From a bacterium (GTDB lineage Bacteria > UBA8248 > JACPRG01 > G963555815), in contig CBDHDG010000007.1 of assembly GCA_965261595.1 (NCBI GenBank), positions 512,001 to 576,000 of the forward strand: DNA of 64,000 nucleotides, read 5' to 3'. A model generated the notes under the pieces. It saw nothing but the letters and a program-made list of their open reading frames with translations. It was not told where the DNA came from and searched no databases. Made by a program: the position numbers and the translations under genes. This document shows, one piece after another, positions 3,820-31,511 of this stretch (the stretch's first letter is position 1; each line of letters opens with the position of its first letter).

Positions 3820-4194
3820 ATGAAGATCGTGAATTCCCACGAGATCAAGGGCCACACCGCCGCGGGGGGGCGGCTCACGCGGATTCTCCTGGACCATGAA
3901 GTCGGCCTGGAAGACGCCGCGGTGGTCCAGGTGGACTTTGCCGAGGGGACGGCCTCGGAGTTTCATGCGCGCGAGGGACAAATCGAGATCCTTTACTCCC
4001 TCAAAGGGGTTAACGCCGTCGGCTATCCCGACGGGCGGCGTGATCTGCTTCCCGAAGGCAGCGCCGCTTACATGACCCCCGGCATCGAGCACCGGCACGA
4101 AAACGGCGGAACCCCCATGGCCACGCTCCTGGTCGTCTTCATTCCGCCCGGGAGCGTCACCGACGCCGTCCGCAAGCGCCCCCTGGAGGACTGA
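3820..4194 (+). CDS. Cupin domain protein
   Basis: H-x(n)-E...G and PGIEHRHEN cupin motifs; GAGGA RBS. Confidence 0.8.
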   Translation: MKIVNSHEIKGHTAAGGRLTRILLDHEVGLEDAAVVQVDFAEGTASEFHAREGQIEILYSLKGVNAVGYPDGRRDLLPEGSAAYMTPGIEHRHENGGTPMATLLVVFIPPGSVTDAVRKRPLED

Positions 4195-4197
4195 CCG

Positions 4198-5556
4198 GTG
4201 GCCTCCCACATGGTGGACTCCGCGCTCTTCAAGGACCAGTTCGGCACCGAGGAGATGCGGCGGATTTTCGACGACCGGAACCTGCTTCAGAGGTGGATGG
4301 ACGTGGAGGCGGCCCTCGCCCGGGCGGAGGCGGCCGTGGGGCTGATCCCCGACTCCGCGGCGGAGGAGATCTCCCGCAGGTGCGAGGCGGACCTCCTGGA
4401 CGTCGAGGCCATCAAACGGGGCATCGACGAGACGAGCCACCCGATTGTGCCCTTCCTGCACGCCTACCAGGCGGTCTGCGGGAAGGAGGCGGGCGAATAC
4501 CTTCACTGGGGGGCGACGACCCAGGACATCATCGACTCGGGGATGGTTCTCCAGATTCGCGAGGCTTACGACGCCATCCAGCGCGACGTGTCGGAGATCA
4601 TCCGGATCATCTGCGACATGGCCCGGAAGTATCGGGACACGCTCATGGCGGGCCGGACCCACGGCGTCCACGCCCTGCCCATCACGTACGGTTTCAAGGT
4701 GGCGATCTGGGCGTGCGAGCTTCACCGCCACCAGGAGCGTCTCCGGGCGGCGAGGCCGCGGGTCCTCGTCTCCAGCTTGTTCGGGGCCGTCGGCACGCTC
4801 AACAGCTTCGGCAAGGACGCCTTGGAGATCCAGCGGCTCGTCTCGGAGGACCTGGGGCTCGACGTCCCGGAGATTTCGTGGCACTCGGCCCGGGACGGCG
4901 TGGCCGAGTGGACGGCCCTGCTCGGGCTTCTGGCGGGGACAATGGGGAAGATCGCCAACGAGATCATCAACCTGATGAAGACCGAGGTGGATGAGGTCGA
5001 GGAGCCCTTTCATCACGGGAAAATCGGAAGCTCCACCATGCCCCACAAGCGCAATCCGATGATCTGCGAAGCGGTGCTCGCCGCCTCGCGCATCGTGCGG
5101 AGTCACGTCCCGCTGGCGCTGGAGGTCATGATGTCCGAGCACGAGCGGGACATGTCCGCCTGGCAGGCGGAGTGGGAGTTCGTCCCCGAGGCCTGCATCC
5201 TGACCGGGGCCGTCCTCCATCAGATGAAGTTTGTTCTGTCGAACCTCATCGTGAAGCCCGACAACATGCGGAAGAACCTCGATGCCCTGGGCGGTCTGAT
5301 ACTCTCGGAAGCGGTTATGCTCCGCCTGGGCGAGTCCATCGGCCGGCAGACGGCTCACGATTTGGTGTATGAGATCAGCATGGAAACTTTCGAGAAAGGG
5401 GTCCCCTTCGCCGATCTGCTCGCAAAGGATGAGAAGGTCTCCGCCCATCTCTCCCCGGAAGAAATTGAGGGGCTGCTCGATCCCGCGAACTACGTCGCCC
5501 ATTGCGGAACCCTGGTGGATCGGGCCGTCGCGGCGTGCGAATCGGGTTCTTCCTGA
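4198..5556 (+). CDS. Adenylosuccinate lyase / carboxymuconate cycloisomerase family (fumarase superfamily) lyase
   Basis: HWGATTQDI, MAGRTHG, GSSTMPHKRNP signatures. Confidence 0.88.
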   Translation: MASHMVDSALFKDQFGTEEMRRIFDDRNLLQRWMDVEAALARAEAAVGLIPDSAAEEISRRCEADLLDVEAIKRGIDETSHPIVPFLHAYQAVCGKEAGEYLHWGATTQDIIDSGMVLQIREAYDAIQRDVSEIIRIICDMARKYRDTLMAGRTHGVHALPITYGFKVAIWACELHRHQERLRAARPRVLVSSLFGAVGTLNSFGKDALEIQRLVSEDLGLDVPEISWHSARDGVAEWTALLGLLAGTMGKIANEIINLMKTEVDEVEEPFHHGKIGSSTMPHKRNPMICEAVLAASRIVRSHVPLALEVMMSEHERDMSAWQAEWEFVPEACILTGAVLHQMKFVLSNLIVKPDNMRKNLDALGGLILSEAVMLRLGESIGRQTAHDLVYEISMETFEKGVPFADLLAKDEKVSAHLSPEEIEGLLDPANYVAHCGTLVDRAVAACESGSS

Positions 5557-5750
5557 CCCGACCCATTCGGGCTTGAAACCCTCCGGACGCTGTGGTAAAT
5601 GGGAAGGGTTCGGAAACCGAAGGCGCGGCGATTGAGAATTCCTGGTGGGGTTGTCTCCGGCGGGGGAGGAGGGGAGCGGGTTTTGCGCGTCCGGCCGGGT
5701 CCCGGAAGGGGCTGGAGCGGGCGAAATCACAATGAGGGAGGACTGGTCTC

Positions 5751-6833
5751 ATGTCGAACGACTGGCCCGTAGCGGCCCACGATCCCAAAGACAGGGCGCT
5801 CGATTATTACATCTGCGATTGCGAAGCGCACATCATGCCGGAGGACTACCGGCGCTTCATCAAGTACTTCCCCGCCACGGCGACGTTCGAGTACGCCCAC
5901 AAGATGTGCAAGCACTGGCAGTGGACCGATCACGTCACGGGGAAGGAGTACAAACAACCGGGGATGGACTGGACCATGGAGAAGATCATCGCCGATTACG
6001 ATTCGTGCGGCGTCGATCAGTCCTGCCTGATGCGCGAGTCCTTCATCGACACAGCCATGGACCACGCCCCCTTCTCCACCAACCAGCACGTCATCGACGC
6101 CCTGGAGAAATACCCGGACCGCTTCATCGGCTGCTCCAACGTCGGTCCCTTCAGCAAGCGGAAGACCAGCGACATCCTCTGGGAGCTGGACTACCTCCAC
6201 ACGAACTTCAACTTCAAGACGACGAAGTTCTACATGCCCGAAGACACCTACATGAACGACCGGCGGCTCTGGCCCGTCTACGAGAAGTGCGAAGAGATGG
6301 GCATTGTCTGCTTCTTCCACACGGGGCTGACGATCCGCATCGGCTACACCAAGTACACCCTGCCGCGGCTCCTGGACGACGTGATGATCGATTTCCCCGA
6401 CCTCAAGGTGGTGGCCTACCACGGCGGCTACCCGTACTGGGAAGAGGCGGCCATGCTGGCGTGGAAGCACCCAAACTTCCACATCAGCTACTCGATCCTC
6501 CTGCCCTGGCTGCTGCGCGCGCCCGAGCGGTTCCTTCACATGGTCGGGACGACGATGCAGATCGCCGGGTCCGACCGCTTCATCTGGGGGAGCGACTGGC
6601 CGGCCTCGGATCCGGGACAGAGCATCCAGGCCGTCCTGAACCTCAAGATGACCGAAGAGCTTCAGGAGAAATACGGCTACCCGGAGATCACCAAAGAGGA
6701 CAAGTTCAAGTTTCTCGGCGGCAACTTGGCCCGCTTGATGGGCATCGACCCGAAGAAGGGCATGCTCAAGGCGAAGCGCGACGGGGCCCGGAAGAAACCC
6801 GCAAAGAAGCGCGCGGCGGGCGGAAAGCGTTAA
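5751..6833 (+). CDS. Amidohydrolase_2 family metal-dependent hydrolase/decarboxylase
   Basis: DCEAH, FHTG, AYHGG, IWGSDWP, FLGGNLARL motifs. Confidence 0.85.
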   Translation: MSNDWPVAAHDPKDRALDYYICDCEAHIMPEDYRRFIKYFPATATFEYAHKMCKHWQWTDHVTGKEYKQPGMDWTMEKIIADYDSCGVDQSCLMRESFIDTAMDHAPFSTNQHVIDALEKYPDRFIGCSNVGPFSKRKTSDILWELDYLHTNFNFKTTKFYMPEDTYMNDRRLWPVYEKCEEMGIVCFFHTGLTIRIGYTKYTLPRLLDDVMIDFPDLKVVAYHGGYPYWEEAAMLAWKHPNFHISYSILLPWLLRAPERFLHMVGTTMQIAGSDRFIWGSDWPASDPGQSIQAVLNLKMTEELQEKYGYPEITKEDKFKFLGGNLARLMGIDPKKGMLKAKRDGARKKPAKKRAAGGKR

Positions 6834-6890
6834 GAGATCGGGCGGCGCGAGTTTCTCGGCGCTCCATTCCGGAAATGGTTTCTCAGATCA

Positions 6891-6925
6891 AGCGGGCGGC
6901 CCGGCGGGCCGCCCGCTCGCGTTTG
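6891..6925 (+). terminator. GC-rich hairpin, probable terminator between convergent genes
   Basis: 12-bp stem AGCGGGCGGCCC / GGGCCGCCCGCT with 3-nt loop; weak U tail. Confidence 0.45.
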
Positions 6926-7102
6926 TCGCGGAATGGGCCGGTGCGGTGATAAAACCGCTTAACCCGTATTTTCCTCAGACATTCCAAACAGGGCGGGTTT
7001 GGCGAAGGGTCTGACCCAACCCCGTCCGGACCCGGCCGCGCCGGGGTTTTCAATACGCCCCCCGGTCTTGCCGGGATTCGATGGTTTGCAAGAAATCCCC
7101 GA

Positions 7103-8200
7103 CTACTCCTTGTACTTGAACACCGGCGCCGCCCGGCGGCCGCGCTTGGGCAGCTTGATCCCGGGCAGGTAGGCGTTGGTGTAAAGCTCCGAGACGGAAG
7201 GCTTTTTCTTCAGCCTAAGAGGCTTGGCCAGGAAGTCGATGGTTTTCTGCCACCTCTCGTCGGTCATCCCCCCGAGCCCCTTCGCCCGGCCGCTCTTCGT
7301 GTACCAGAGGTCGCCCGTGATGTCCCAGACCTCGCGGTTGGATTGCTTTTCGCACACGGGACATTGCTTCATCAGGTAATTGATGGATTCATCCGGATTC
7401 TGAAGGGCGTAGGCGATCCCGCGGCCGGCGGCCTTCAAGAATTTTCGGACGTCCCCGCCCCTCTGCTCGAGCGTCTTGTCCAGAACAATGAGACCCGTGC
7501 CGTAAATTCTCAGGCCCTCGTTGGCAAGGGGAACAAAGTGGATCTCTTTTCCAACCTGCTTGGCCTTCCGGGACAGGATGGGGTACTGCGTGACGAAGCC
7601 GGTAGAGGCCAGGTACGCCCCGGCCAGCATTCCGGCGTCCCGCGCGGCGGGGGTTGTGTTCACAAACTTGACCTTCTTCAGGTCGTAGCCTTTGATGCCG
7701 TAAAGGAGCTTGATGCTCGGCCAGATGGCGTCGTTCTCCGGCGCGCCGATGCTCTTGCCCATGAGGTCCTTGAGCGAGTTGATCCCTCGGTCCTTGAGGG
7801 TCCAGACAACCATCGGCGGGATGTCGTGGTTCATCATCACCGTTTTGGACTTGACACCTTTTCTCCAAGCGATGATCTGGGAGATGGACGGCACGGACCC
7901 TCCCACGGTGTAGGTGCCCGCGCCCACCTTCGTCATCGTGGCCCCGCCGCCGAAACCGCGGATAATTTTGACGTTGTCCAAGCCCTCTTCTTGAAAAAAC
8001 CCCTTGTCGCGGGCCGTCAGCCACCCCAGGTCGCGCCCGTAGAACACCCAGCCGATGCTGAAGACGAAGTCCTTCTGGGCATGGACCATTTGCGGCGCCC
8101 AAACCCCGACCGCAAGCGTCGCGGCCAGGAAACCGGAAACGCCCAGGAGCAACAACCGACGCATTTTCGATTCTCGCCTTCGCATTGATTTTCCCTCCAT
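7103..8200 (-). CDS. ABC transporter substrate-binding protein, NMT1/THI5/SsuA family
   Basis: Signal peptide, A-x-DKGFF-x-EEGL, I-x-SLKDL-x-GKSIG motifs; true start may be a downstream Met. Confidence 0.82.
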   Translation of the reverse strand: MEGKSMRRRESKMRRLLLLGVSGFLAATLAVGVWAPQMVHAQKDFVFSIGWVFYGRDLGWLTARDKGFFQEEGLDNVKIIRGFGGGATMTKVGAGTYTVGGSVPSISQIIAWRKGVKSKTVMMNHDIPPMVVWTLKDRGINSLKDLMGKSIGAPENDAIWPSIKLLYGIKGYDLKKVKFVNTTPAARDAGMLAGAYLASTGFVTQYPILSRKAKQVGKEIHFVPLANEGLRIYGTGLIVLDKTLEQRGGDVRKFLKAAGRGIAYALQNPDESINYLMKQCPVCEKQSNREVWDITGDLWYTKSGRAKGLGGMTDERWQKTIDFLAKPLRLKKKPSVSELYTNAYLPGIKLPKRGRRAAPVFKYKE

Positions 8201-8249
8201 TCGGTGATCGAAATACTGGTTCCGAGCCGCGATCGCGCGACCGATCAGC

Positions 8250-24832: not shown

Positions 24833-25234
24833 TTGTCCAGGGATGAAAGCACAGGGAATCGGATGGACGGCCCGGGTGGTCTCAGCATCCTGCGCAGGGG
24901 CGCGCGCCTGAAATGCCCGCGCTGCGGAACCGGCGCATTGTTCCGGGGGTTCTTCGCGATGCGTCCTGAGTGTCCGGATTGCGGTCTTCTCACCGAGCCG
25001 GAGATGGGGTATTACGTGGGCGCGATTTACATCAACTACGGGTTCACCGTCGGGATCGCCGTGACGGGATATTTTCTTCTGGATGCGTACACAAACATCG
25101 CGCTGAAAGGCCAGCTTGTCCTGTGGATCCCGTTTTGCGTCTTGTTTCCACTCTTATTCTTCCGGCATTCCAAGAGCCTGTGGTTGAGTCTCGACATCCT
25201 CTTCAACCCGCCGAAGGAAGGCGGATCTCCGTAG
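24833..25234 (+). CDS. DUF983 family Zn-ribbon membrane protein
   Basis: CPRCGTGALFRGFF...CPDCGL plus two TM helices. Confidence 0.8.
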   Translation: MSRDESTGNRMDGPGGLSILRRGARLKCPRCGTGALFRGFFAMRPECPDCGLLTEPEMGYYVGAIYINYGFTVGIAVTGYFLLDAYTNIALKGQLVLWIPFCVLFPLLFFRHSKSLWLSLDILFNPPKEGGSP

Positions 25235-25248
25235 AAAGCGTCCCGGCC

Positions 25249-26271
25249 GTGAGCCAACCCCCCATAAGCGTTGAACCCCTCCCCCCTGATTCGGCCGGCT
25301 CGCAGACCGAGCCGCCCGCGGTCGTCACCGAGGATCTCCACCACGCCTATGGCGCGCACATCGCGTTGAAAGGGGTCTCGCTCTCCGTCCGCCGGGGCGA
25401 GATTTTCGGCGTCCTGGGCGAGAATGGTGGCGGGAAGACCACGTTGTTCAAGATCCTCTCCACGCTCATGCCCCCCACCGGCGGAAGGGTCTCTCTCCTG
25501 GGTCGGGACGCCCTGAGGAATCCGCACGCCGTCCGAAAGCGCATCGGGGTGGTTTTCCAGCACGCGAGCCTCGACCCCAAGCTCACGGTCATCGAGAACC
25601 TCTTGCACCAGGGCCGGCTCTACGGCATGCGGGGAAGGGCCCTCAAAGAGCGGGCCCGGACAAACCTGGATCGCCTGGGCCTGGCCGGCCGGAGCCGGGA
25701 CCGGGCGGAAACCCTTTCCAGCGGCTTGAAACGCAGGGCGGAGCTGGCCAAGGCCCTCCTGCACCGGCCGGAAGTCCTCATCATGGATGAGCCTGGAACC
25801 GGTCTCGACCCCGGCGCCCGTTGTGATTTCGACGATTATCTGGCCGAGCTTCGGGAGTCGGATGGGACGACCGTTTTGTTGACGACGCATTTTCTGGAAG
25901 AGGCCGAGCGGTGCGACCGCGTCGCCTTCCTTCATCGGGGGGAGGTCGTCGCCCTGGGCGCGCCCGAGGAGATCAAGGCCCGCGTCGGCGGGGACGTGGT
26001 GGCTATCCACTCGGGCAATCCCGAAGGGTTGGGCGCGAAGGTGCGGGAGCGCTTCGGCTGCAAGGCGCAAGTCGTGCGCGGCGCGCTTCGCGTCGAGCGG
26101 CCGGAGGGCCATGAGTTCGTCCGGGAGGTGGTCAACGCCTTCCCCGGCGACATCCGCTCCGTCGCCTTCGGCAAGCCGACGCTGGAGGACGTCTTCGTCC
26201 GGCTGACCGGCCGCGGGCTCGACGACGGCGAGGCGGCGGAAAATGAGGGGGGGGGGGGGGCGGCGGCGTGA
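25249..26271 (+). CDS. ABC transporter ATP-binding protein
   Basis: GENGGGKTT Walker A, LSSG signature, IMDEP, TTH; start approximate. Confidence 0.9.
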   Translation: MSQPPISVEPLPPDSAGSQTEPPAVVTEDLHHAYGAHIALKGVSLSVRRGEIFGVLGENGGGKTTLFKILSTLMPPTGGRVSLLGRDALRNPHAVRKRIGVVFQHASLDPKLTVIENLLHQGRLYGMRGRALKERARTNLDRLGLAGRSRDRAETLSSGLKRRAELAKALLHRPEVLIMDEPGTGLDPGARCDFDDYLAELRESDGTTVLLTTHFLEEAERCDRVAFLHRGEVVALGAPEEIKARVGGDVVAIHSGNPEGLGAKVRERFGCKAQVVRGALRVERPEGHEFVREVVNAFPGDIRSVAFGKPTLEDVFVRLTGRGLDDGEAAENEGGGGAAA

Positions 26272-27068
26272 TGGGGTTCTGGCTGCCGGTCCTGTCCCTT
26301 TGGCGGCGGGAGATCGTCCGGTTCGTGAGACAAAGGAGCCGGGTCGTCGGCGCGCTGGTTCAGCCGCTGCTCTTCTGGGTCCTGCTGGGGAGCGGGTTCC
26401 GGGCGTCGTTCCGGGCGCCGGGAACGCCGGAGGGGGGGGGGGGAGGGGGGGGGATGAGCTATGCCGAGTATTTCTATCCGGGGATCATCGCGCTCGTCCT
26501 TCTCTTCACAGCGATCTTCTCGACCATTTCCACCGTCCAGGACCGGAGCGAAGGTTTTCTTCAGGGCGTGCTGGTGGCCCCGGCGCCCCGTTCGAGCATT
26601 GTCCTCGGGCAGGCCCTGGGCGGGACAACCCTGGCCCTCGTCGAGGGGCTGCTTCTCCTTCTCCTCGCCCCGCTGGCGGGCATCCCGCTGACGGTTCAAT
26701 CCGTGGTTCTGTCCCTGGCGGTGATGGCCCTGCTCTCTTTCGGGATGACGAGTCTGGGCCTCGCGATTGCCTGGCGGATGGAGTCGGTCCAGGGGTTTCA
26801 CGCCATCATGAACCTGTTCCTGATGCCGCTGTGGCTGCTTTCGGGGGCCATTTTTCCCGCCGAAGGGGCCCCTGTCTGGCTTGGATGGGTGATGCGGGTG
26901 AACCCGATGACCTACGGCGTCGCGGCCCTGCGGCGTTCCATGTACTGGGGGGGGGGAGGCCCGGCGAGTCCGCTTCCCTCTTTTTCGGCCTCCCTGACCG
27001 TCATGATCTTCTTTTCGGTCCTGATCTTCCTGACAACCGTCTGGATTGCTACGCGGCGCTCCGTCTAA
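26268..27068 (+). CDS. ABC-2 type permease
   Basis: PLLFWVLLGSG, YFYPGII, LSGAIFP, NPMTYGV. Confidence 0.88.
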   Translation: MMGFWLPVLSLWRREIVRFVRQRSRVVGALVQPLLFWVLLGSGFRASFRAPGTPEGGGGGGGMSYAEYFYPGIIALVLLFTAIFSTISTVQDRSEGFLQGVLVAPAPRSSIVLGQALGGTTLALVEGLLLLLLAPLAGIPLTVQSVVLSLAVMALLSFGMTSLGLAIAWRMESVQGFHAIMNLFLMPLWLLSGAIFPAEGAPVWLGWVMRVNPMTYGVAALRRSMYWGGGGPASPLPSFSASLTVMIFFSVLIFLTTVWIATRRSV

Positions 27069-27123
27069 ACATCCGCGGAGGGAGAATTTTCCCCTGTGAG
27101 GATTGAGGGGAGTGTTTTTTTTA

Positions 27124-27152
27124 TTGACTTTCGTGTATTATTTGTCTATATT
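27124..27152 (+). promoter_or_regulatory. Sigma70 promoter whose -10 overlaps the IS1595 target duplication
   Basis: TTGACT-17 bp-TATATT. Confidence 0.6.
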
Positions 27153-27181
27153 CAAGGCGATTATATACTTCACAGGACCAA

Positions 27182-27373
27182 TCAGGAGTGGAGTTCGAGG
27201 GGATCGCTGATTTCCTCGTCGTTCTTGTCGGTGTTCTTCGCCTTTACTTTCTCTTTCTTGGGTTTATTCATAGTTAAGAGTTTCTCTAACAGCTTTCTGA
27301 ATTTCTTCTCATCTAAATTTTCGTCGTTACTCTTGCTCATCTTGCCCTGGGGTCCTTTGGTCTCTAGTCCCAT
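27182..27373 (-). CDS. Small charged hypothetical protein (IS passenger, uncertain)
   Basis: 63 aa Lys/Glu-rich ORF overlapping the PIN gene end and stopping next to the IR. Confidence 0.35.
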   Translation of the reverse strand: MGLETKGPQGKMSKSNDENLDEKKFRKLLEKLLTMNKPKKEKVKAKNTDKNDEEISDPLELHS

Positions 27374-27869
27374 AACCTAGCTCTCCTTGGTCAGGCTGTG
27401 GGGGGGTGCAAATCTTCAGCTTTTCACCATCCTCTCTGTCAATCAGCCCATCGAGAGATAAAAGGTCGGAGCCATTAAAGGTGTGAAACTTGTCAACGTT
27501 ATGAAGGGCGGCTGAGGCGAGATGAATTGCATCCTGGGGTTTCAGCGTCTTGTCGGGGAGTGCGTTTATGGATCTGAGAATCCGCCGCGCCAAGATACCG
27601 ACGTCTCTATCCAATTGGATGTAAACAACATAATCTTGCTCAAGGAATTCCTCAAACATGGCGTCTTTTGCCTGAGCCAATCCTTTGTTCACCCCTTCAC
27701 ACTTTTTCTTGAAGACCTCTGCGAGGGTAAATGTTGACGTTAGTATCACAACCTCTTTTACCTCGGCCTGTTTGATGGCATGCCTACATGCAACTAGCCT
27801 GCCTTCTTCCTCGTTGATCAGGCCAATCCACACGCATGAATCCCAGTAGACCCGAGACTTATCCGTCAA
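27327..27869 (-). CDS. PIN-domain (VapC-like) nuclease
   Basis: VYWDSCVWI, TSTFTLAEV, DAIHLASA, FHTFNGSD acidic PIN pattern. Confidence 0.85.
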   Translation of the reverse strand: MTDKSRVYWDSCVWIGLINEEEGRLVACRHAIKQAEVKEVVILTSTFTLAEVFKKKCEGVNKGLAQAKDAMFEEFLEQDYVVYIQLDRDVGILARRILRSINALPDKTLKPQDAIHLASAALHNVDKFHTFNGSDLLSLDGLIDREDGEKLKICTPPQPDQGELGYGTRDQRTPGQDEQE

Positions 27870-28722
27870 GGTTCTCTTCCCTAAGATTGTCTAAATACTC
27901 CGACGGTCCCATGCCACCGGTGAAATCAGGATCTCGAATATCGTCAATGGACACGTTCGTCGGATCAATCAGGGTTACACTAGAGGCCTGGACCCGAGAA
28001 ATAGAACCGCCATCCGTATAGCTGATTATCCCTCGAACCAGAATCCGCTTCTGCCTCCAGACATCCAGGAGAGTCGCTTCTCCGGCAATCGTTTCTTGGA
28101 GGTCGTCCGAGATCCGACACCAAAATTTTTTTCTGGTTACCCTCTCGATTATCCAGAGCGCTGGGTTGTTGGATTTCGTGCCCACATCATGCAGATACCC
28201 TTCAACAGATCCGAGTTCACTCCGTGCGCTTCTTGCAATCTTTTGCTCGATCTCAACTAAAACTTCAACCATTCTTTCGTACTCCAGAATAGCGCGACTG
28301 GCTTTTTGTGGGGTGATCTCGATAGGTGGCGCGTCTTTTTCTAAGACGATTTCGGTCTTTCCTATGCCGTTGGCACATCTCTCAAGGATTCCTCCAACGA
28401 GTTCCGCCGGAGGCCCGGAGCGCCACCGCTGGGGGATTCGGCCTTCGGACAGCTCCCTGATATCGTTCCCGAAACGCTCCTTCTGGTGTTTGGCAATTCG
28501 ATCAACGTCAACGGTTTGGGTCTTCCCAACGGCTTCCCCTTCAACCATTAACGGGCTATCCATGCTTACAGCGGCCAATCGCCAGAATATCTCTTTTCCC
28601 TCCGGATCGTCTTGAAGGGCAAGATCAAAAATGTCCAACACCTGTTGCATTGCGTCTTGGACCGTTAGTAAATCAGGGGTTTTGCTCGGACCCTGAACAC
28701 CCACCTGGATGAATTCAGCCAT
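27859..28722 (-). CDS. Hypothetical protein, putative PIN partner/antitoxin
   Basis: ATG after GGAG; 287 aa; C-terminal PDFTGGMGPSEYLDNLRE; overlaps the PIN start by 11 nt. Confidence 0.7.
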   Translation of the reverse strand: MAEFIQVGVQGPSKTPDLLTVQDAMQQVLDIFDLALQDDPEGKEIFWRLAAVSMDSPLMVEGEAVGKTQTVDVDRIAKHQKERFGNDIRELSEGRIPQRWRSGPPAELVGGILERCANGIGKTEIVLEKDAPPIEITPQKASRAILEYERMVEVLVEIEQKIARSARSELGSVEGYLHDVGTKSNNPALWIIERVTRKKFWCRISDDLQETIAGEATLLDVWRQKRILVRGIISYTDGGSISRVQASSVTLIDPTNVSIDDIRDPDFTGGMGPSEYLDNLREENLDG

Positions 28723-28779
28723 GATTTTTTCTCCGCCTGCGAAGGATCCGCCTGCGCTTAGATTTGCGTTCTCGCCCAA

Positions 28780-29709
28780 TTATGAGTGCCGATACAAGAG
28801 CCGTTTCCCCTCAAATCCGCTTAGGGCGAGGCGCATCCTCTCGACATCCCCCATCTTACGGCTGTTCCATCGGAAATTAAACTCCGCCAGGTAGCGGTCC
28901 ATGTGCCCTTCGCTGATATGGTGGAAGGCCCCCATAATGCCGCGTTTAAACAGGGAAAAGTACGACTCCGCGAAGTTCGTGTGAACGATTCCGCGGACAT
29001 AGGTTTTCGCATGGTCAACAGTCTGATGGCTTTTGAAGTGTTTGTCCAGCCCGGAATAGGACTGAAACTTGTCGGTCATAATGTCGGCGGTGATCTCAAC
29101 ATTTTCCCGAATGAGCCGACGCAGGGTTCCCTTTCCAACATTGGGAACGGTGAAGGCCTTAACCCGGCCATCCCTCTCAATCAGCGTGACAACCGGGGTC
29201 TTTTTGTCAGCCCCACGTCCACGAGTCCCGGTTCCCCTCTTCCTTCCGAATCGGTTGCGGACCTTTCCGCCGACATAGGTTTCATCAACCTCAACGATTC
29301 CGGTGAGCATTTCCTGGACATCGGGATCACCCATGGCATGGCGGATACGGTGACAAAGGAACCACGCGCTTTTGTAGGTGATACCTACAGACCGTTCTAT
29401 CTGTTTCGCAGAGATTCCCTTCTTGCTGGAGGACATCAAATAGACGGTGGCCAGCCATTTATTCAGGGGGATATGGGAAGCCTCAAAAATGGTCCCTACC
29501 GTCACAGAAAATTTCTTGCGGCAGGAAGCGCACTTGTAAGACCTCCGCTTGCTCTTCTTGTTCTTGGAGTTCGGGGCAGTCAACCAGGATTTCCCATGCC
29601 CGCAATGAGAACAGATTCGACCATCTGCCCATCGAACTTCCTCAATTAAATCAATGGCCTTTTCTTCATCGGCGAAACAGGAAGAAAGCTTAATCAAGTT
29701 GGATTCCAT
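28780..29709 (-). CDS. IS1595-family DDE transposase
   Basis: Zn ribbon CSHC...CASC, VEVDETYVGG, TD, HTNFAESYFSLFKR, RYLAEFNFRWN. Confidence 0.95.
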   Translation of the reverse strand: MESNLIKLSSCFADEEKAIDLIEEVRWADGRICSHCGHGKSWLTAPNSKNKKSKRRSYKCASCRKKFSVTVGTIFEASHIPLNKWLATVYLMSSSKKGISAKQIERSVGITYKSAWFLCHRIRHAMGDPDVQEMLTGIVEVDETYVGGKVRNRFGRKRGTGTRGRGADKKTPVVTLIERDGRVKAFTVPNVGKGTLRRLIRENVEITADIMTDKFQSYSGLDKHFKSHQTVDHAKTYVRGIVHTNFAESYFSLFKRGIMGAFHHISEGHMDRYLAEFNFRWNSRKMGDVERMRLALSGFEGKRLLYRHS

Positions 29710-29895
29710 GACAAATGTCTCCTTTCAAGACTGAATATAGACCATGGGAGAGGTCCTGTCAAGTATATAATCACCATATTCAATGGAACCGAACGGCACG
29801 AAAATCGCTCCAATCATTAAGGCAGGGATTAGATTTACAGGTAGTGGAGACTTTCATCCGCTGTTTCAAGGGGTGGGAGAAAGGAGATCCCGGCG

Positions 29896-30096
29896 ATGAA
29901 AACGCTGAAAGAGAAGGAAGTGGCGCTCCTTTCCATCCGCAACCTGAACCGCTATCTCCATGGAGAGATCAAAAAAGAGGAGTGGCGGGAGAACATGCGC
30001 TGGATCGAGGACATGCTCGCCCGCCAGCAGGCCCTGCCGTTATCCGGGGACAAACTGGACGACCCCCCCCGGGCCGGATCGGTCTCGGACAATTGA
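29896..30096 (+). CDS. Small hypothetical protein (66 aa)
   Basis: AAGGAG RBS, plausible helical composition. Confidence 0.55.
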   Translation: MKTLKEKEVALLSIRNLNRYLHGEIKKEEWRENMRWIEDMLARQQALPLSGDKLDDPPRAGSVSDN

Positions 30097-30336
30097 AGCG
30101 CATCGGGCAAAACATCGGGGCCGTCTCGACTAACTCGCGCAGCTTGCCCCGGGATGCCCGCGAGGGCGTGTCACCCTCCCGGTCCGCGTCCGGGATGTCC
30201 CCTTGATGGAGGGGCCTCGCAGCGGACTTCCCGGATGATCGTCCGTCAATCAAAACCAACATCATTAAATTGGAAGACCTGCCCCCCCCGGGCTGAATCC
30301 TCAGCGCCCTTTCCGGGTCCTGCCCCGGGAGCGTCC

Positions 30337-31368
30337 TCACGATTGCACCTCGCTCGTCTCCGTCTTCGTCGGGACCTGCCAGCGCCCGCCCAGTTGATAG
30401 CGCGAGAAGAGAAGCATGCCGAGGGAGATGTAAAATATTTCCCGGAAGCGGCGAAGGATGCTGAACGAGAGGGCGGTTGTGGCGGGGAGGCCGTAAGCCG
30501 CGAAAATAAGGATGTTTCCCCCCTCCGTCGCGCCGATCCCCCCCGGGATAAAGAAAATCGCCCCCTTGATCATCGCGACGATGGATTCGATGGCAAAGGC
30601 CATCCCCCAATTGACGGGGACGCCCAGGAGCCAAAGCACGAAGTACGTTTCCCCGACTCCCGCCACCCAACCTAGAAAATGAAAGAGAATCCCGAGCGTC
30701 ATCCCCCGGCGGTTTTCCCGGTAATAACGGGAAAGTTTCTCGTCCAGGCTGATCATTCGGCTTTCCACTTTGGCCAGCGCGGCCCCCTTCAGTCCGAGGT
30801 ATCGCAAAAACCGCATGATGGCCCCGAACATTCCCAGCCGCTGCGCGACCAGGAGCGCGACACACAGGGGGATGAAGGCCACCATCGTCCACATCAGCCC
30901 TTTTATGATCGCCGGGCCGGTCCCGATTTGGTAGATGGCGATGCAGATTCCGATCAGCACAAAGAGCGCCTCGGCAATCGTCATGACCGTCTTGGCCACG
31001 ACCACTGAGGAAGCGCCATCCACCATGTTCACGCCGTGGCGCTCCAGGAAGAACACCTTGACCGGCTCCCCCCCCATATACGCGGTGGGGGTGATGGTGT
31101 TCATCGTTTCGCCGATGAGGCGCAGCCAAAGGAGGCGAACCATCCGGATGGCCGGTTTCTCGGAAAAACAGTAGCGCCACCCGACGTTGTTAATCCAGGT
31201 GGCGACGAAATACGGAAGGATGATGAAGGGAAAGTAGATCCCCGCCCGGCCGAGCTCTCTTCCAATGGCGCGCGCGTCGAGGAAGTAGAGCAGAACGCCG
31301 AAGAATGCGAGTCCCGCCGCCAGAAAAAACAGACTGATCAGACGCCCAACCGTGGAGCTCGCGGACAT
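30337..31368 (-). CDS. Lysylphosphatidylglycerol synthase TM/flippase-like membrane protein (UPF0104)
   Basis: GETMNTITPTAYMGGEPVK, IPGGIGATEGG, RRFRE. Confidence 0.85.
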   Translation of the reverse strand: MSASSTVGRLISLFFLAAGLAFFGVLLYFLDARAIGRELGRAGIYFPFIILPYFVATWINNVGWRYCFSEKPAIRMVRLLWLRLIGETMNTITPTAYMGGEPVKVFFLERHGVNMVDGASSVVVAKTVMTIAEALFVLIGICIAIYQIGTGPAIIKGLMWTMVAFIPLCVALLVAQRLGMFGAIMRFLRYLGLKGAALAKVESRMISLDEKLSRYYRENRRGMTLGILFHFLGWVAGVGETYFVLWLLGVPVNWGMAFAIESIVAMIKGAIFFIPGGIGATEGGNILIFAAYGLPATTALSFSILRRFREIFYISLGMLLFSRYQLGGRWQVPTKTETSEVQS

Positions 31369-31511
31369 AAACACCCAAACTTTCCGGAAACAGATCCGCC
31401 GCAACCGACTTCAGGGGGAAAGGGGCCGTTCAGAAAACCTCTGCTACAATACCACACTTGGTAGAACCCAGCGCTTGATTCAACCATTCCTGCTGATCGG
31501 GGACCACCGAT

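Follow-up and report, generated by a model that had tools for sequence, protein, structure and literature searches.

The DNA considered here (64,000 nucleotides (nt) of contig CBDHDG010000007.1 in assembly GCA_965261595.1, positions 512,001 to 576,000 of the forward strand, henceforth "the window") comes from a bacterium of the GTDB lineage UBA8248 and holds, at 27156-29775, an intact insertion sequence (IS) of the IS1595 family that carries more than its transposase. Three genes, all on the minus strand, follow one another in the order transposase, "partner" and PIN-domain nuclease: the partner is a protein of 287 amino acids (aa) that belongs to no named family, and the PIN gene starts before the partner gene has ended. 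The subject of this account is the partner-PIN pair: what it consists of, what carries it, and what it might do.

A loaded insertion sequence and its empty sites

The two ends of the element are inverted repeats of 24 nt, complementary at 22 of the 24 positions (92%), and directly outside each of them stands one copy of an exact 8-base-pair (bp) target duplication, ATATTCAA (coordinates are collected in the Table). The G+C fraction is 0.45-0.54 within the element and 0.60-0.71 in the flanks. The transposase matches PF12762 over the entire model (9e-43, model positions 1-153 of 153), its zinc ribbon matches PF12760 (2e-9), and the whole protein matches NF033547 at 1e-65 (221 bits; cut-off 75): a DDE transposase with a zinc ribbon, short inverted repeats and an 8-bp duplication place the element in the IS1595 family. 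With two to three open reading frames (ORFs) between the transposase and the far repeat, and with an empty-site joint that omits the whole unit (see below), it is a transporter IS (tIS). The repeats start with GGCGATTAT and GGTGATTAT; the repeat start of the ISNwi1 subgroup is presumably ggnnatTAT (GGnnATTAT), which the element's repeats may match. A reading of the stretch from its letters alone (the sequence-only reading) had already described an intact IS1595-type element with passengers, 24-bp repeats, an exact 8-bp duplication, an intact transposase, DNA of lower G+C, and a 287-aa ORF of unfamiliar type overlapping the PIN gene by 11 nt; the repeat, duplication, Pfam and G+C data and the ORF coordinates bear out all of this.

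The whole unit has moved as one piece, and recently, because contigs from two studies show its empty site. Four sequencing runs were compared over 26700-30300 (these are metagenome contigs, in which depth is not equal to copy number). In each of runs X6 and X7, from the two studies, one contig of 4,987 nt passes straight from 27147 to 29776. This joint is clean: it omits 2,628 nt, the 8 letters at the junction fit both sides, and what remains is the empty target with a single 8-mer. Over approximately 970 aligned bases these contigs differ from the window by one letter and one gap. The element is present in both runs as well, less deeply covered and on contigs of its own (start 27156, end 29772-29775), and in X7 one contig continues beyond 29775 into another flank. 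Near-identical copies of the element are found in sequencing runs of several studies. Run X5 was set aside: its right junction is the window's for 28 nt and its left flank is unlike, which makes it ambiguous.

In its own genome the element is single-copy: there are 55 IS1595-type transposase matches (its own included), but one partner gene and one PIN gene of this type. A search of 20 related genomes did not recover it; the flanks alone match there, at 66-76% identity, too divergent to be read as empty sites. The portion of the comparison between samples that is tabulated shows 16 differences within the element, 13 of them in ORFs (6 silent, 7 residue-changing), and 34 others lie beyond it. 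At 27748 (PIN codon 41) the window has Val; the X5, X6 and X7 copies have Glu, as do most relatives. Some of the other IS1595-type transposases of this genome (loci L058-L066) adjoin genes of other kinds: a P63C-domain protein overlaps the end of the transposase in L065 (2370-3272; L066 is its twin by equal scores), and an HNH endonuclease adjoins it in L058 (2678-3280) and L059. Such copies may be transporter ISs too.

The neighbours of the element in the window are plus-strand genes for an ABC-transporter ATPase and permease (24970-27068) and a minus-strand membrane-protein gene (30337-31404). It occupies the spacer that separates them and starts about 80 nt past the permease stop, and therefore no host gene is broken. 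The sole minus-strand promoter-like site within 26900-30000 (TTGACA-17 nt-TATATT) has its -35 hexamer within the terminal repeat and is directed into the array of transposase, partner and PIN. TTGAC recurs at the equivalent repeat position in seven of eight related elements (in L008 at one end only) and is absent from the IS1-type element L023, to be described below. A single transcript for transposase, partner and PIN is likely on these sequence features. An Rfam scan of 26900-30000 returned two matches, both sub-threshold and at chance level.

The partner family and the PIN nuclease

The ATG at 28722 is preferred as the start of the partner (stop codon at 27859-27861) because its homologues begin there; the earliest possible start, a TTG, would yield 306 aa. 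A word-based search retrieved 36 other clusters of partner proteins, 26-43% identical to the window's, all 251-292 aa long and all labelled "hypothetical". HMMER with the partner profile finds 1,197 representatives (50%-identity clusters) at E ≤ 1e-3, of which 249 reach E ≤ 1e-30; the best 150 relatives are, with few exceptions, 250-300 aa long; no fused or longer forms were found, which is weak evidence. This sizeable family has no name. The window's partner matches no model in Pfam, NCBIfam, PADLOC or PHROGs; among 37 members none has a consistent Pfam family and none (0/37) matches a PADLOC model; the ESM Atlas offers unnamed clusters only; the family profile finds nothing better than E 0.21 among PDB sequences; and PADLOC-DB 2.0 (2023) has no family for any of the four window proteins. 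The possibility, raised by the sequence-only reading against itself, that the pair is an already named system accordingly finds no match in these collections.

The AlphaFold2 model of the partner (mean predicted local distance difference test score, pLDDT, 90.3) is built of two domains. Residues 1-136 form a ferredoxin-like domain of the order beta-alpha-beta-beta-alpha-(alpha)-beta, from which a long helix (138-165) leads to a five-stranded barrel at 166-254, an OB fold (strands 168-183, 186-193, 199-204, 226-235 and 241-252; helices 206-222), and the chain ends in a short helix (273-281). Aligned with VIA-align, residues 166-254 are most like SSB 4dam_A (Z 9.6, root-mean-square deviation 3.8, 85 residues aligned), then PriB, RPA and editosome OB proteins, with AsnRS at Z 8.0 and a listed range of Z 9.6 to 7.4, values of a size that is ordinary among OB folds and that does not indicate the ligand. 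The best Foldseek matches of the OB domain are the anticodon-binding domains of LysRS, AspRS and AsnRS (E 1e-4). The likeness to these known OB-fold binders is one of fold, at 3-20% identity and with no relation at the level of sequence. The beta-rich, OB-fold-like C-terminal half that had been suspected from the letters is what the model contains. The N-domain modelled by itself (pLDDT 86.9) is generic ferredoxin-like and has no specific relative: its best VIA-align match is PriA 6dgd_A at Z 5.6, and Foldseek returns nothing at E ≤ 1e-3.

Residues conserved in at least 90% of 171 members are D23, Q27, W47, S56, P57, R115, A141, G171, G175, P187, C202 (98%), W222, G231 and G239, and G270 in the tail. 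The tail motif, D264-x2-F267-T268-x-G270...Y276-L277...R281, is 81-91% conserved in the same set, and F267, T268, G270, Y276 and R281 are invariant in a closer set (n=37); in the window the TTG start of the PIN gene lies inside the Leu-Asp codons of the partner, so that part of the last partner codons is also constrained by the PIN start. Where a short C-terminal helix resembling a toxin-binding tail had been proposed, a conserved C-terminal helix, possibly one that binds a toxin, is present in model and alignment alike. Pfam recognizes no RHH, AbrB, HTH or Phd antitoxin domain in the 37 members, a missing match being compatible with DNA binding.

The PIN assignment of the downstream gene comes from PF01850 (1.5e-8, 35.7 bits; cut-off 23.6), and its homologues make up 85 clusters besides the window's own, most of them also with PF01850. 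The window's PIN reaches no NCBIfam VapC model, and the PIN-family profile has 0 matches at E ≤ 0.01 among PDB sequences. The family has the four acidic residues of a PIN active site; the window's copy does not. It retains D10, E51 and D113, has a four-residue insertion ahead of the third of these, and at position 132, the codon for the fourth acidic residue, specifies Asn where Asp (in the motif HT[FY]D) is found in 19 of 19 locus homologues and in at least 90% of the 59 sequences of alignment A3. The window's PIN may be weakened by N132; among the acidic positions of PIN domains the fourth is generally the least strictly kept. At another locus (L020:5815-6327) the PIN gene is split into ORFs of 44 and 115 aa and the partner is intact; an rve-type IS follows, and an AbiEi gene lies 2.4 kb upstream. 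Loss or weakening of PIN with the partner intact is what one would expect if the nuclease were harmful and the partner protective, and two cases are an anecdote rather than proof.

Pairing, carriers and neighbourhoods

The pair was followed in 22 genome loci (from contigs of one genome per species) and 20 metagenome loci. In 21 of the 22 genome loci the partner stop coincides with, or lies slightly behind, the start of a PIN homologue (38-54% identity), the exception (L029) having a partner reduced to an 85-aa fragment; among the metagenome loci a PIN gene is downstream in all 15 whose contig runs beyond the partner, the other five ending inside the partner or within 65 nt of it. Pooled, the testable loci have PIN behind the partner in 36 of 36. 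In the loci that were read, the TTG start of PIN overlaps the stop codon of the partner. A search with both profiles, in an even sample of 301 genomes from the order around G021, found the partner profile in 6 and the PIN profile in 40: the six best PIN matches (E 2e-68 to 5e-28) follow the six partner matches at distances of up to 70 nt. That the two genes might fail to co-occur had been named in advance as a finding that would undo the proposal; instead they co-occur in 21/22, 15/15 and 6/6. Adjacent co-oriented genes, partner first, overlapping and strictly co-occurring, amount to the layout of a type II toxin-antitoxin (TA) locus.

The pairing extends beyond the subfamily of the window. 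Two of the six pairs just mentioned (L070, L071) have upstream partners of 249 and 246 aa. Of the weaker PIN matches, four were inspected: L072 and L073 have upstream proteins of 272 and 291 aa, L068 has decayed pieces of a similar kind, and L069 has a 336-aa ORF upstream. The upstream proteins of L070-L073, combined into a profile, match the partner family with 97.4% probability (E 1e-11, 229 columns), and the pairing is therefore older than the subfamily. Among 11 complete elements the identity matrices of partner and PIN are correlated (Spearman 0.84, a value reached by 0 of 2000 permutations), a test that is inflated by sequence kinship and is taken only to mean that partner and PIN travel together. 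The transposase has no such correlation with either of them (rho 0.09 with the partner and 0.10 with PIN; p 0.29 and 0.28); therefore the cassette has been exchanged among elements.

An IS1595 transposase lies directly upstream of the pair in 24 of the 42 loci: 11 of the 22 from genomes (two truncated) and 13 of the 20 from metagenomes (several cut by contig ends, some degraded). The unit of transposase, partner and PIN is bounded by terminal repeats and 8-bp duplications in L008, L010, L011, L013, L015, L016 and L019, and a distant branch of the family (L071, L072) again has the pair behind an IS1595 transposase. The other 18 loci lack an adjacent IS1595 transposase, some of them being on short contigs. 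In one of the 18 (L023, Acidobacteriota) the carrier of the pair is an IS1-type element, which is bounded by repeats of its own and an 8-bp duplication and has a transposase on the opposite strand (PF03400 (IS1), 1.3e-6, 29.2 bits; cut-off 24.1). Complete pairs without any transposase are found in L014, L017, L020-L022, L024, L026-L028, L032-L037 and L045. The pair is, in short, an old and self-contained cassette; it passes between elements of the IS1595 and IS1 families, and chromosomes hold it on its own as well. By the labels of the sequence records it is spread over at least four phyla or classes (Alpha- and Gammaproteobacteria, Acidobacteriota, Rhodothermales). Among viral contigs, none of 121 pattern matches is a relative; among 72,556 plasmid records there is one relative, on pMOC1, where NCBI's pipeline lists, one after the other, an IS1595 family transposase, a hypothetical protein, a "type II toxin-antitoxin system VapC family toxin" and, last, a hypothetical protein of 62 aa.

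The gene-neighbourhood comparison that the sequence-only reading had called for thus places partner and PIN homologues next to each other, and it also places some stand-alone copies among defence genes. The neighbourhoods of three stand-alone loci were read (L020, L022, L028). In a gammaproteobacterial contig (L022:1745-9689) the pair is flanked to one side by genes for Mrr and a PD-(D/E)XK nuclease, and to the other by genes for a CAP12/Pycsar TIR protein and a type I specificity subunit; in L028 a Schlafen/AlbA_2 protein is nearby; the AbiEi gene of L020 has already been mentioned.

In IS-borne copies the PIN gene is followed by a small Lys-rich ORF of 57-83 aa with the motif EQSxRFxExARExxADE...F...L.KIAKxKP, conserved in L008-L016, L019 and L025 and in the distant L072. 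It matches nothing in Pfam or PHROGs and was not seen after stand-alone pairs. The 63-aa ORF at the corresponding place in the window scores E 4.6 with a hidden Markov model of the post-PIN ORF (rank 2 of 1281 frames), which is not significant. Two further observations concern the surroundings of individual elements. On both sides of the element in L012 (2100-4100 and 6800-8500) the motifs PRGGADRN, GARIET and SRGRGSK are repeated in several frames, and these flanks appear from their sequence to be a dense direct-repeat array, REP-like (repetitive extragenic palindrome) or CRISPR-like. In L011 the loaded element (3993-7025) is followed directly, from 7026, by a second IS1595-type element without the pair: a duplicated 8-mer, then another GGCG... 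end, and a transposase at 7349-8221.

Table. Coordinates of the features of the element in the window, and of the small ORFs behind PIN at other loci (locus:coordinates).
Feature	Position	Strand	Remarks
Left copy of target-site duplication	27148..27155		ATATTCAA; empty-site contigs retain one copy
Terminal inverted repeat, PIN side	27156..27179		24 nt; X6 element contigs start exactly at 27156
63-aa Lys-rich ORF overlapping the PIN 3' end	27182..27373	-	doubtful counterpart of the post-PIN small ORF
PIN-domain nuclease gene, 180 aa, TTG start	27327..27869	-	PF01850
Partner gene, 287 aa	27859..28722	-	homologues, structure models, fold searches, conservation
IS1595-family DDE transposase, N-terminal zinc ribbon, 309 aa, intact	28780..29709	-	PF12762, PF12760, NF033547
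Promoter-like site, TTGACA-17 nt-TATATT, 11/12	29734..29762	-	consensus match only
Terminal inverted repeat, transposase side	29752..29775		element contigs of other runs end at 29772-29775
Right copy of target-site duplication	29776..29783		ATATTCAA; joint of 27147 to 29776
Post-PIN small ORF	L008:6410-6637		
Post-PIN small ORF	L011:6420-6614		
Post-PIN small ORF	L013:6320-6493		
Post-PIN small ORF	L015:6332-6514		
Post-PIN small ORF	L016:6344-6529		
Post-PIN small ORF	L019:6347-6535		
Post-PIN small ORF	L025:6260-6511		
Post-PIN small ORF	L072:542-721	-	
Post-PIN small ORF, pMOC1	L074:3122-3310		

A proposed toxin-antitoxin-like cassette and its alternatives

How does this arrangement compare with known ones? 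With VapBC it shares the PF01850 PIN domain, overlapping genes with the (putative) antitoxin first, and a conserved C-terminal segment of the partner that might cover the active site. It differs in its partner, which has an OB fold and no recognized DNA-binding domain and which, at 287 aa, is three times the usual size: the sequence-only reading was right to call it far larger than a VapB. The TnCentral preprint, whose definition of a tIS is followed here, records such elements in the IS1595 and IS66 families, and PMC8496243 does so for IS1 and IS1595 (Siguier, Gagnevin and Chandler 2009 is the work on tIS cited in PMC8496243, PMC3129680 and the TnCentral preprint). The features shared with the tISs of IS1595 and IS1 are one DDE transposase, short repeats, an 8-bp duplication and passengers that move along; what sets the present element apart from tISs in general is its load, a specific conserved cassette met with repeatedly in both families. 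The other precedent is the Tn3 family, in which, according to Lima-Mendez et al. 2020 (PMC7157771), 39 of 190 transposons carry type II TA pairs, some with PIN or PIN_3 toxins, the antitoxins being small (RHH_6, Phd/YefM or AbrB) and several acquisitions independent. Common to both is a PIN-type toxin with an upstream partner in a transposable element, acquired or exchanged repeatedly and independently of the transposase; on the side of difference, the Tn3 carriers are large and have resolvases, while here the carrier is a 2.6-kb insertion sequence and the partner a 287-aa OB-fold protein of no named family. Set against the tISs and the Tn3-borne pairs as these sources present them, it is the partner family and its architecture, the plain-IS carrier and the persistence of the association that are new. 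No paper on a PIN/OB-fold-partner pair or on IS-borne PIN passengers was found by a literature search that lacked most subscription journals.

What, then, might the pair do? At slightly better than even chances, we take it to be a toxin-antitoxin-like cassette that rides transporter ISs, its PIN protein a toxin that the partner would neutralize. The scheme we have in mind is the following. One promoter, in the transposase-side end, would probably drive the three-gene array, and translation of PIN, from a weak TTG start overlapping the partner's stop, would be coupled to translation of the partner. The partner would be made first and in excess and would keep in check a PIN protein that is presumably an RNase-type toxin of the VapC kind; the weak overlapping TTG would hold the amount of toxin below that of the partner. 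The conserved C-terminal tail (D264...R281) would most likely be laid over the PIN active site, and the OB fold and ferredoxin-like domain may add a nucleic-acid-binding or sensing role that a plain VapB does not have. The cassette could then serve as an addiction or stabilizing load for the insertion sequence or its carrier, and possibly as a phage-defence load as well. The reasons for preferring this scheme are the mobility of the unit, strict pairing, the overlapping start, co-divergence, and independence from any one transposase; a decay of PIN of the kind expected of a toxin (split in L020, N132 in the window); and defence-gene neighbours, the "VapC family toxin" annotation in pMOC1 and the Tn3 precedent. 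The sequence-only reading, which proposed a sensor-antitoxin coupled to an RNase effector, for example in abortive infection, is supported in part: the loaded element, the large OB-fold partner and the strict co-occurrence bear it out, and its sensor and abortive-infection roles are putative.

Several considerations weigh against it. 1) The partner, as modelled, is a well-folded two-domain protein with conserved polar residues across both domains, which would fit an active role better than that of a passive plug. 2) It has no recognizable example of the DNA-binding domain that is usual in type II antitoxins. 3) The PIN profile has no solved relative by sequence, and therefore it is the Pfam domain by itself that bears the analogy with VapC; neither PIN nor the partner matches a PADLOC model. 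4) Of the four conserved acidic residues the window's own PIN has three. 5) With no viral relatives, and with one relative in 72,556 plasmid records, plasmid addiction is not the main niche. 6) The lasting link to IS1595, maintained even in the distant L071 and L072, could point to a role in transposition.

A different view of the pair is as a two-subunit nuclease whose OB partner would bring single-stranded RNA, tRNA or DNA to PIN, the two acting jointly as a defence effector. Such a partner would be expected to have an OB domain like this one, whose closest likenesses are SSB 4dam_A (Z 9.6) and, in class IIb tRNA synthetases, the anticodon-binding domains; also in keeping with it are conserved residues in both its domains (Cys202 at 98%), the co-divergence of partner and PIN, and stand-alone copies that are in some cases found among restriction, TIR and Abi genes. 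Yet fold likeness alone shows no function, few neighbourhoods (three stand-alone loci) are behind the link to defence, no PADLOC model is matched, and the order of the genes, the weak overlapping TTG and the PIN-first decay are those of a toxin under the control of an inhibitor. We consider a joint nuclease rather unlikely. A further proposal, in which the partner would be no passive antitoxin but would gate PIN, either by sensing nucleic acid with its OB fold or by shielding tRNA anticodon loops, and in which the partner-PIN superfamily would constitute an unnamed TA or abortive-infection system with the IS (IS1595 and IS1 tISs) as its main vehicle, wired to the transposase promoter as a "transposition-coupled" addiction or defence module, must be called unlikely.

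The pair might also assist in transposition: for IS1595-type elements, its OB protein, being SSB-like, and its PIN nuclease, if structure-specific, might process DNA intermediates or flanks, or regulate copy number. A pair placed directly behind the IS1595 transposase in 24 of 42 loci, and again in the distant branch (L071, L072), is what one would look for in that case, as are probable co-transcription with the transposase from the end-repeat promoter and an extra small ORF that is conserved after PIN in IS-borne copies only. This is quite unlikely in the face of complete transposase-free pairs, of a pair on an IS1-type element, of the failure of the pair to co-diverge with the transposase (rho 0.09, 0.10), and of a genome in which 55 IS1595-type transposase matches stand against one pair, so that such elements move without it. 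There is also the thought that the window's cassette in particular is a decaying relic, its PIN inactive (N132) and its genes carried along without function. N132 at a place where 19 of 19 locus homologues have Asp, the Val at PIN 41 where a variant of the element elsewhere has Glu like most relatives, and the single copy of the element speak for decay; it is the least probable of the readings considered here, inasmuch as the three reading frames, the ends and the duplication are all intact, related populations still have the empty site, as befits a recent insertion, and the fourth acidic position of PIN domains is a lenient one.

Insertion sequences are usually thought of as carrying a transposase and nothing else. 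Here one cassette recurs on two related IS families, and direct evidence from populations shows that the loaded element still moves. The partner family, 1,197 clusters strong, is without a name, and a single functional assignment would cover many genes. Should sensing or shielding of nucleic acid be the task of the OB domain, a new mode of control of PIN toxins would be at hand; and if the toxin-antitoxin-like cassette stabilizes or otherwise benefits its insertion sequence, the idea of TA pairs as part of the transposition module would extend from the Tn3 transposons to the simplest of mobile elements.

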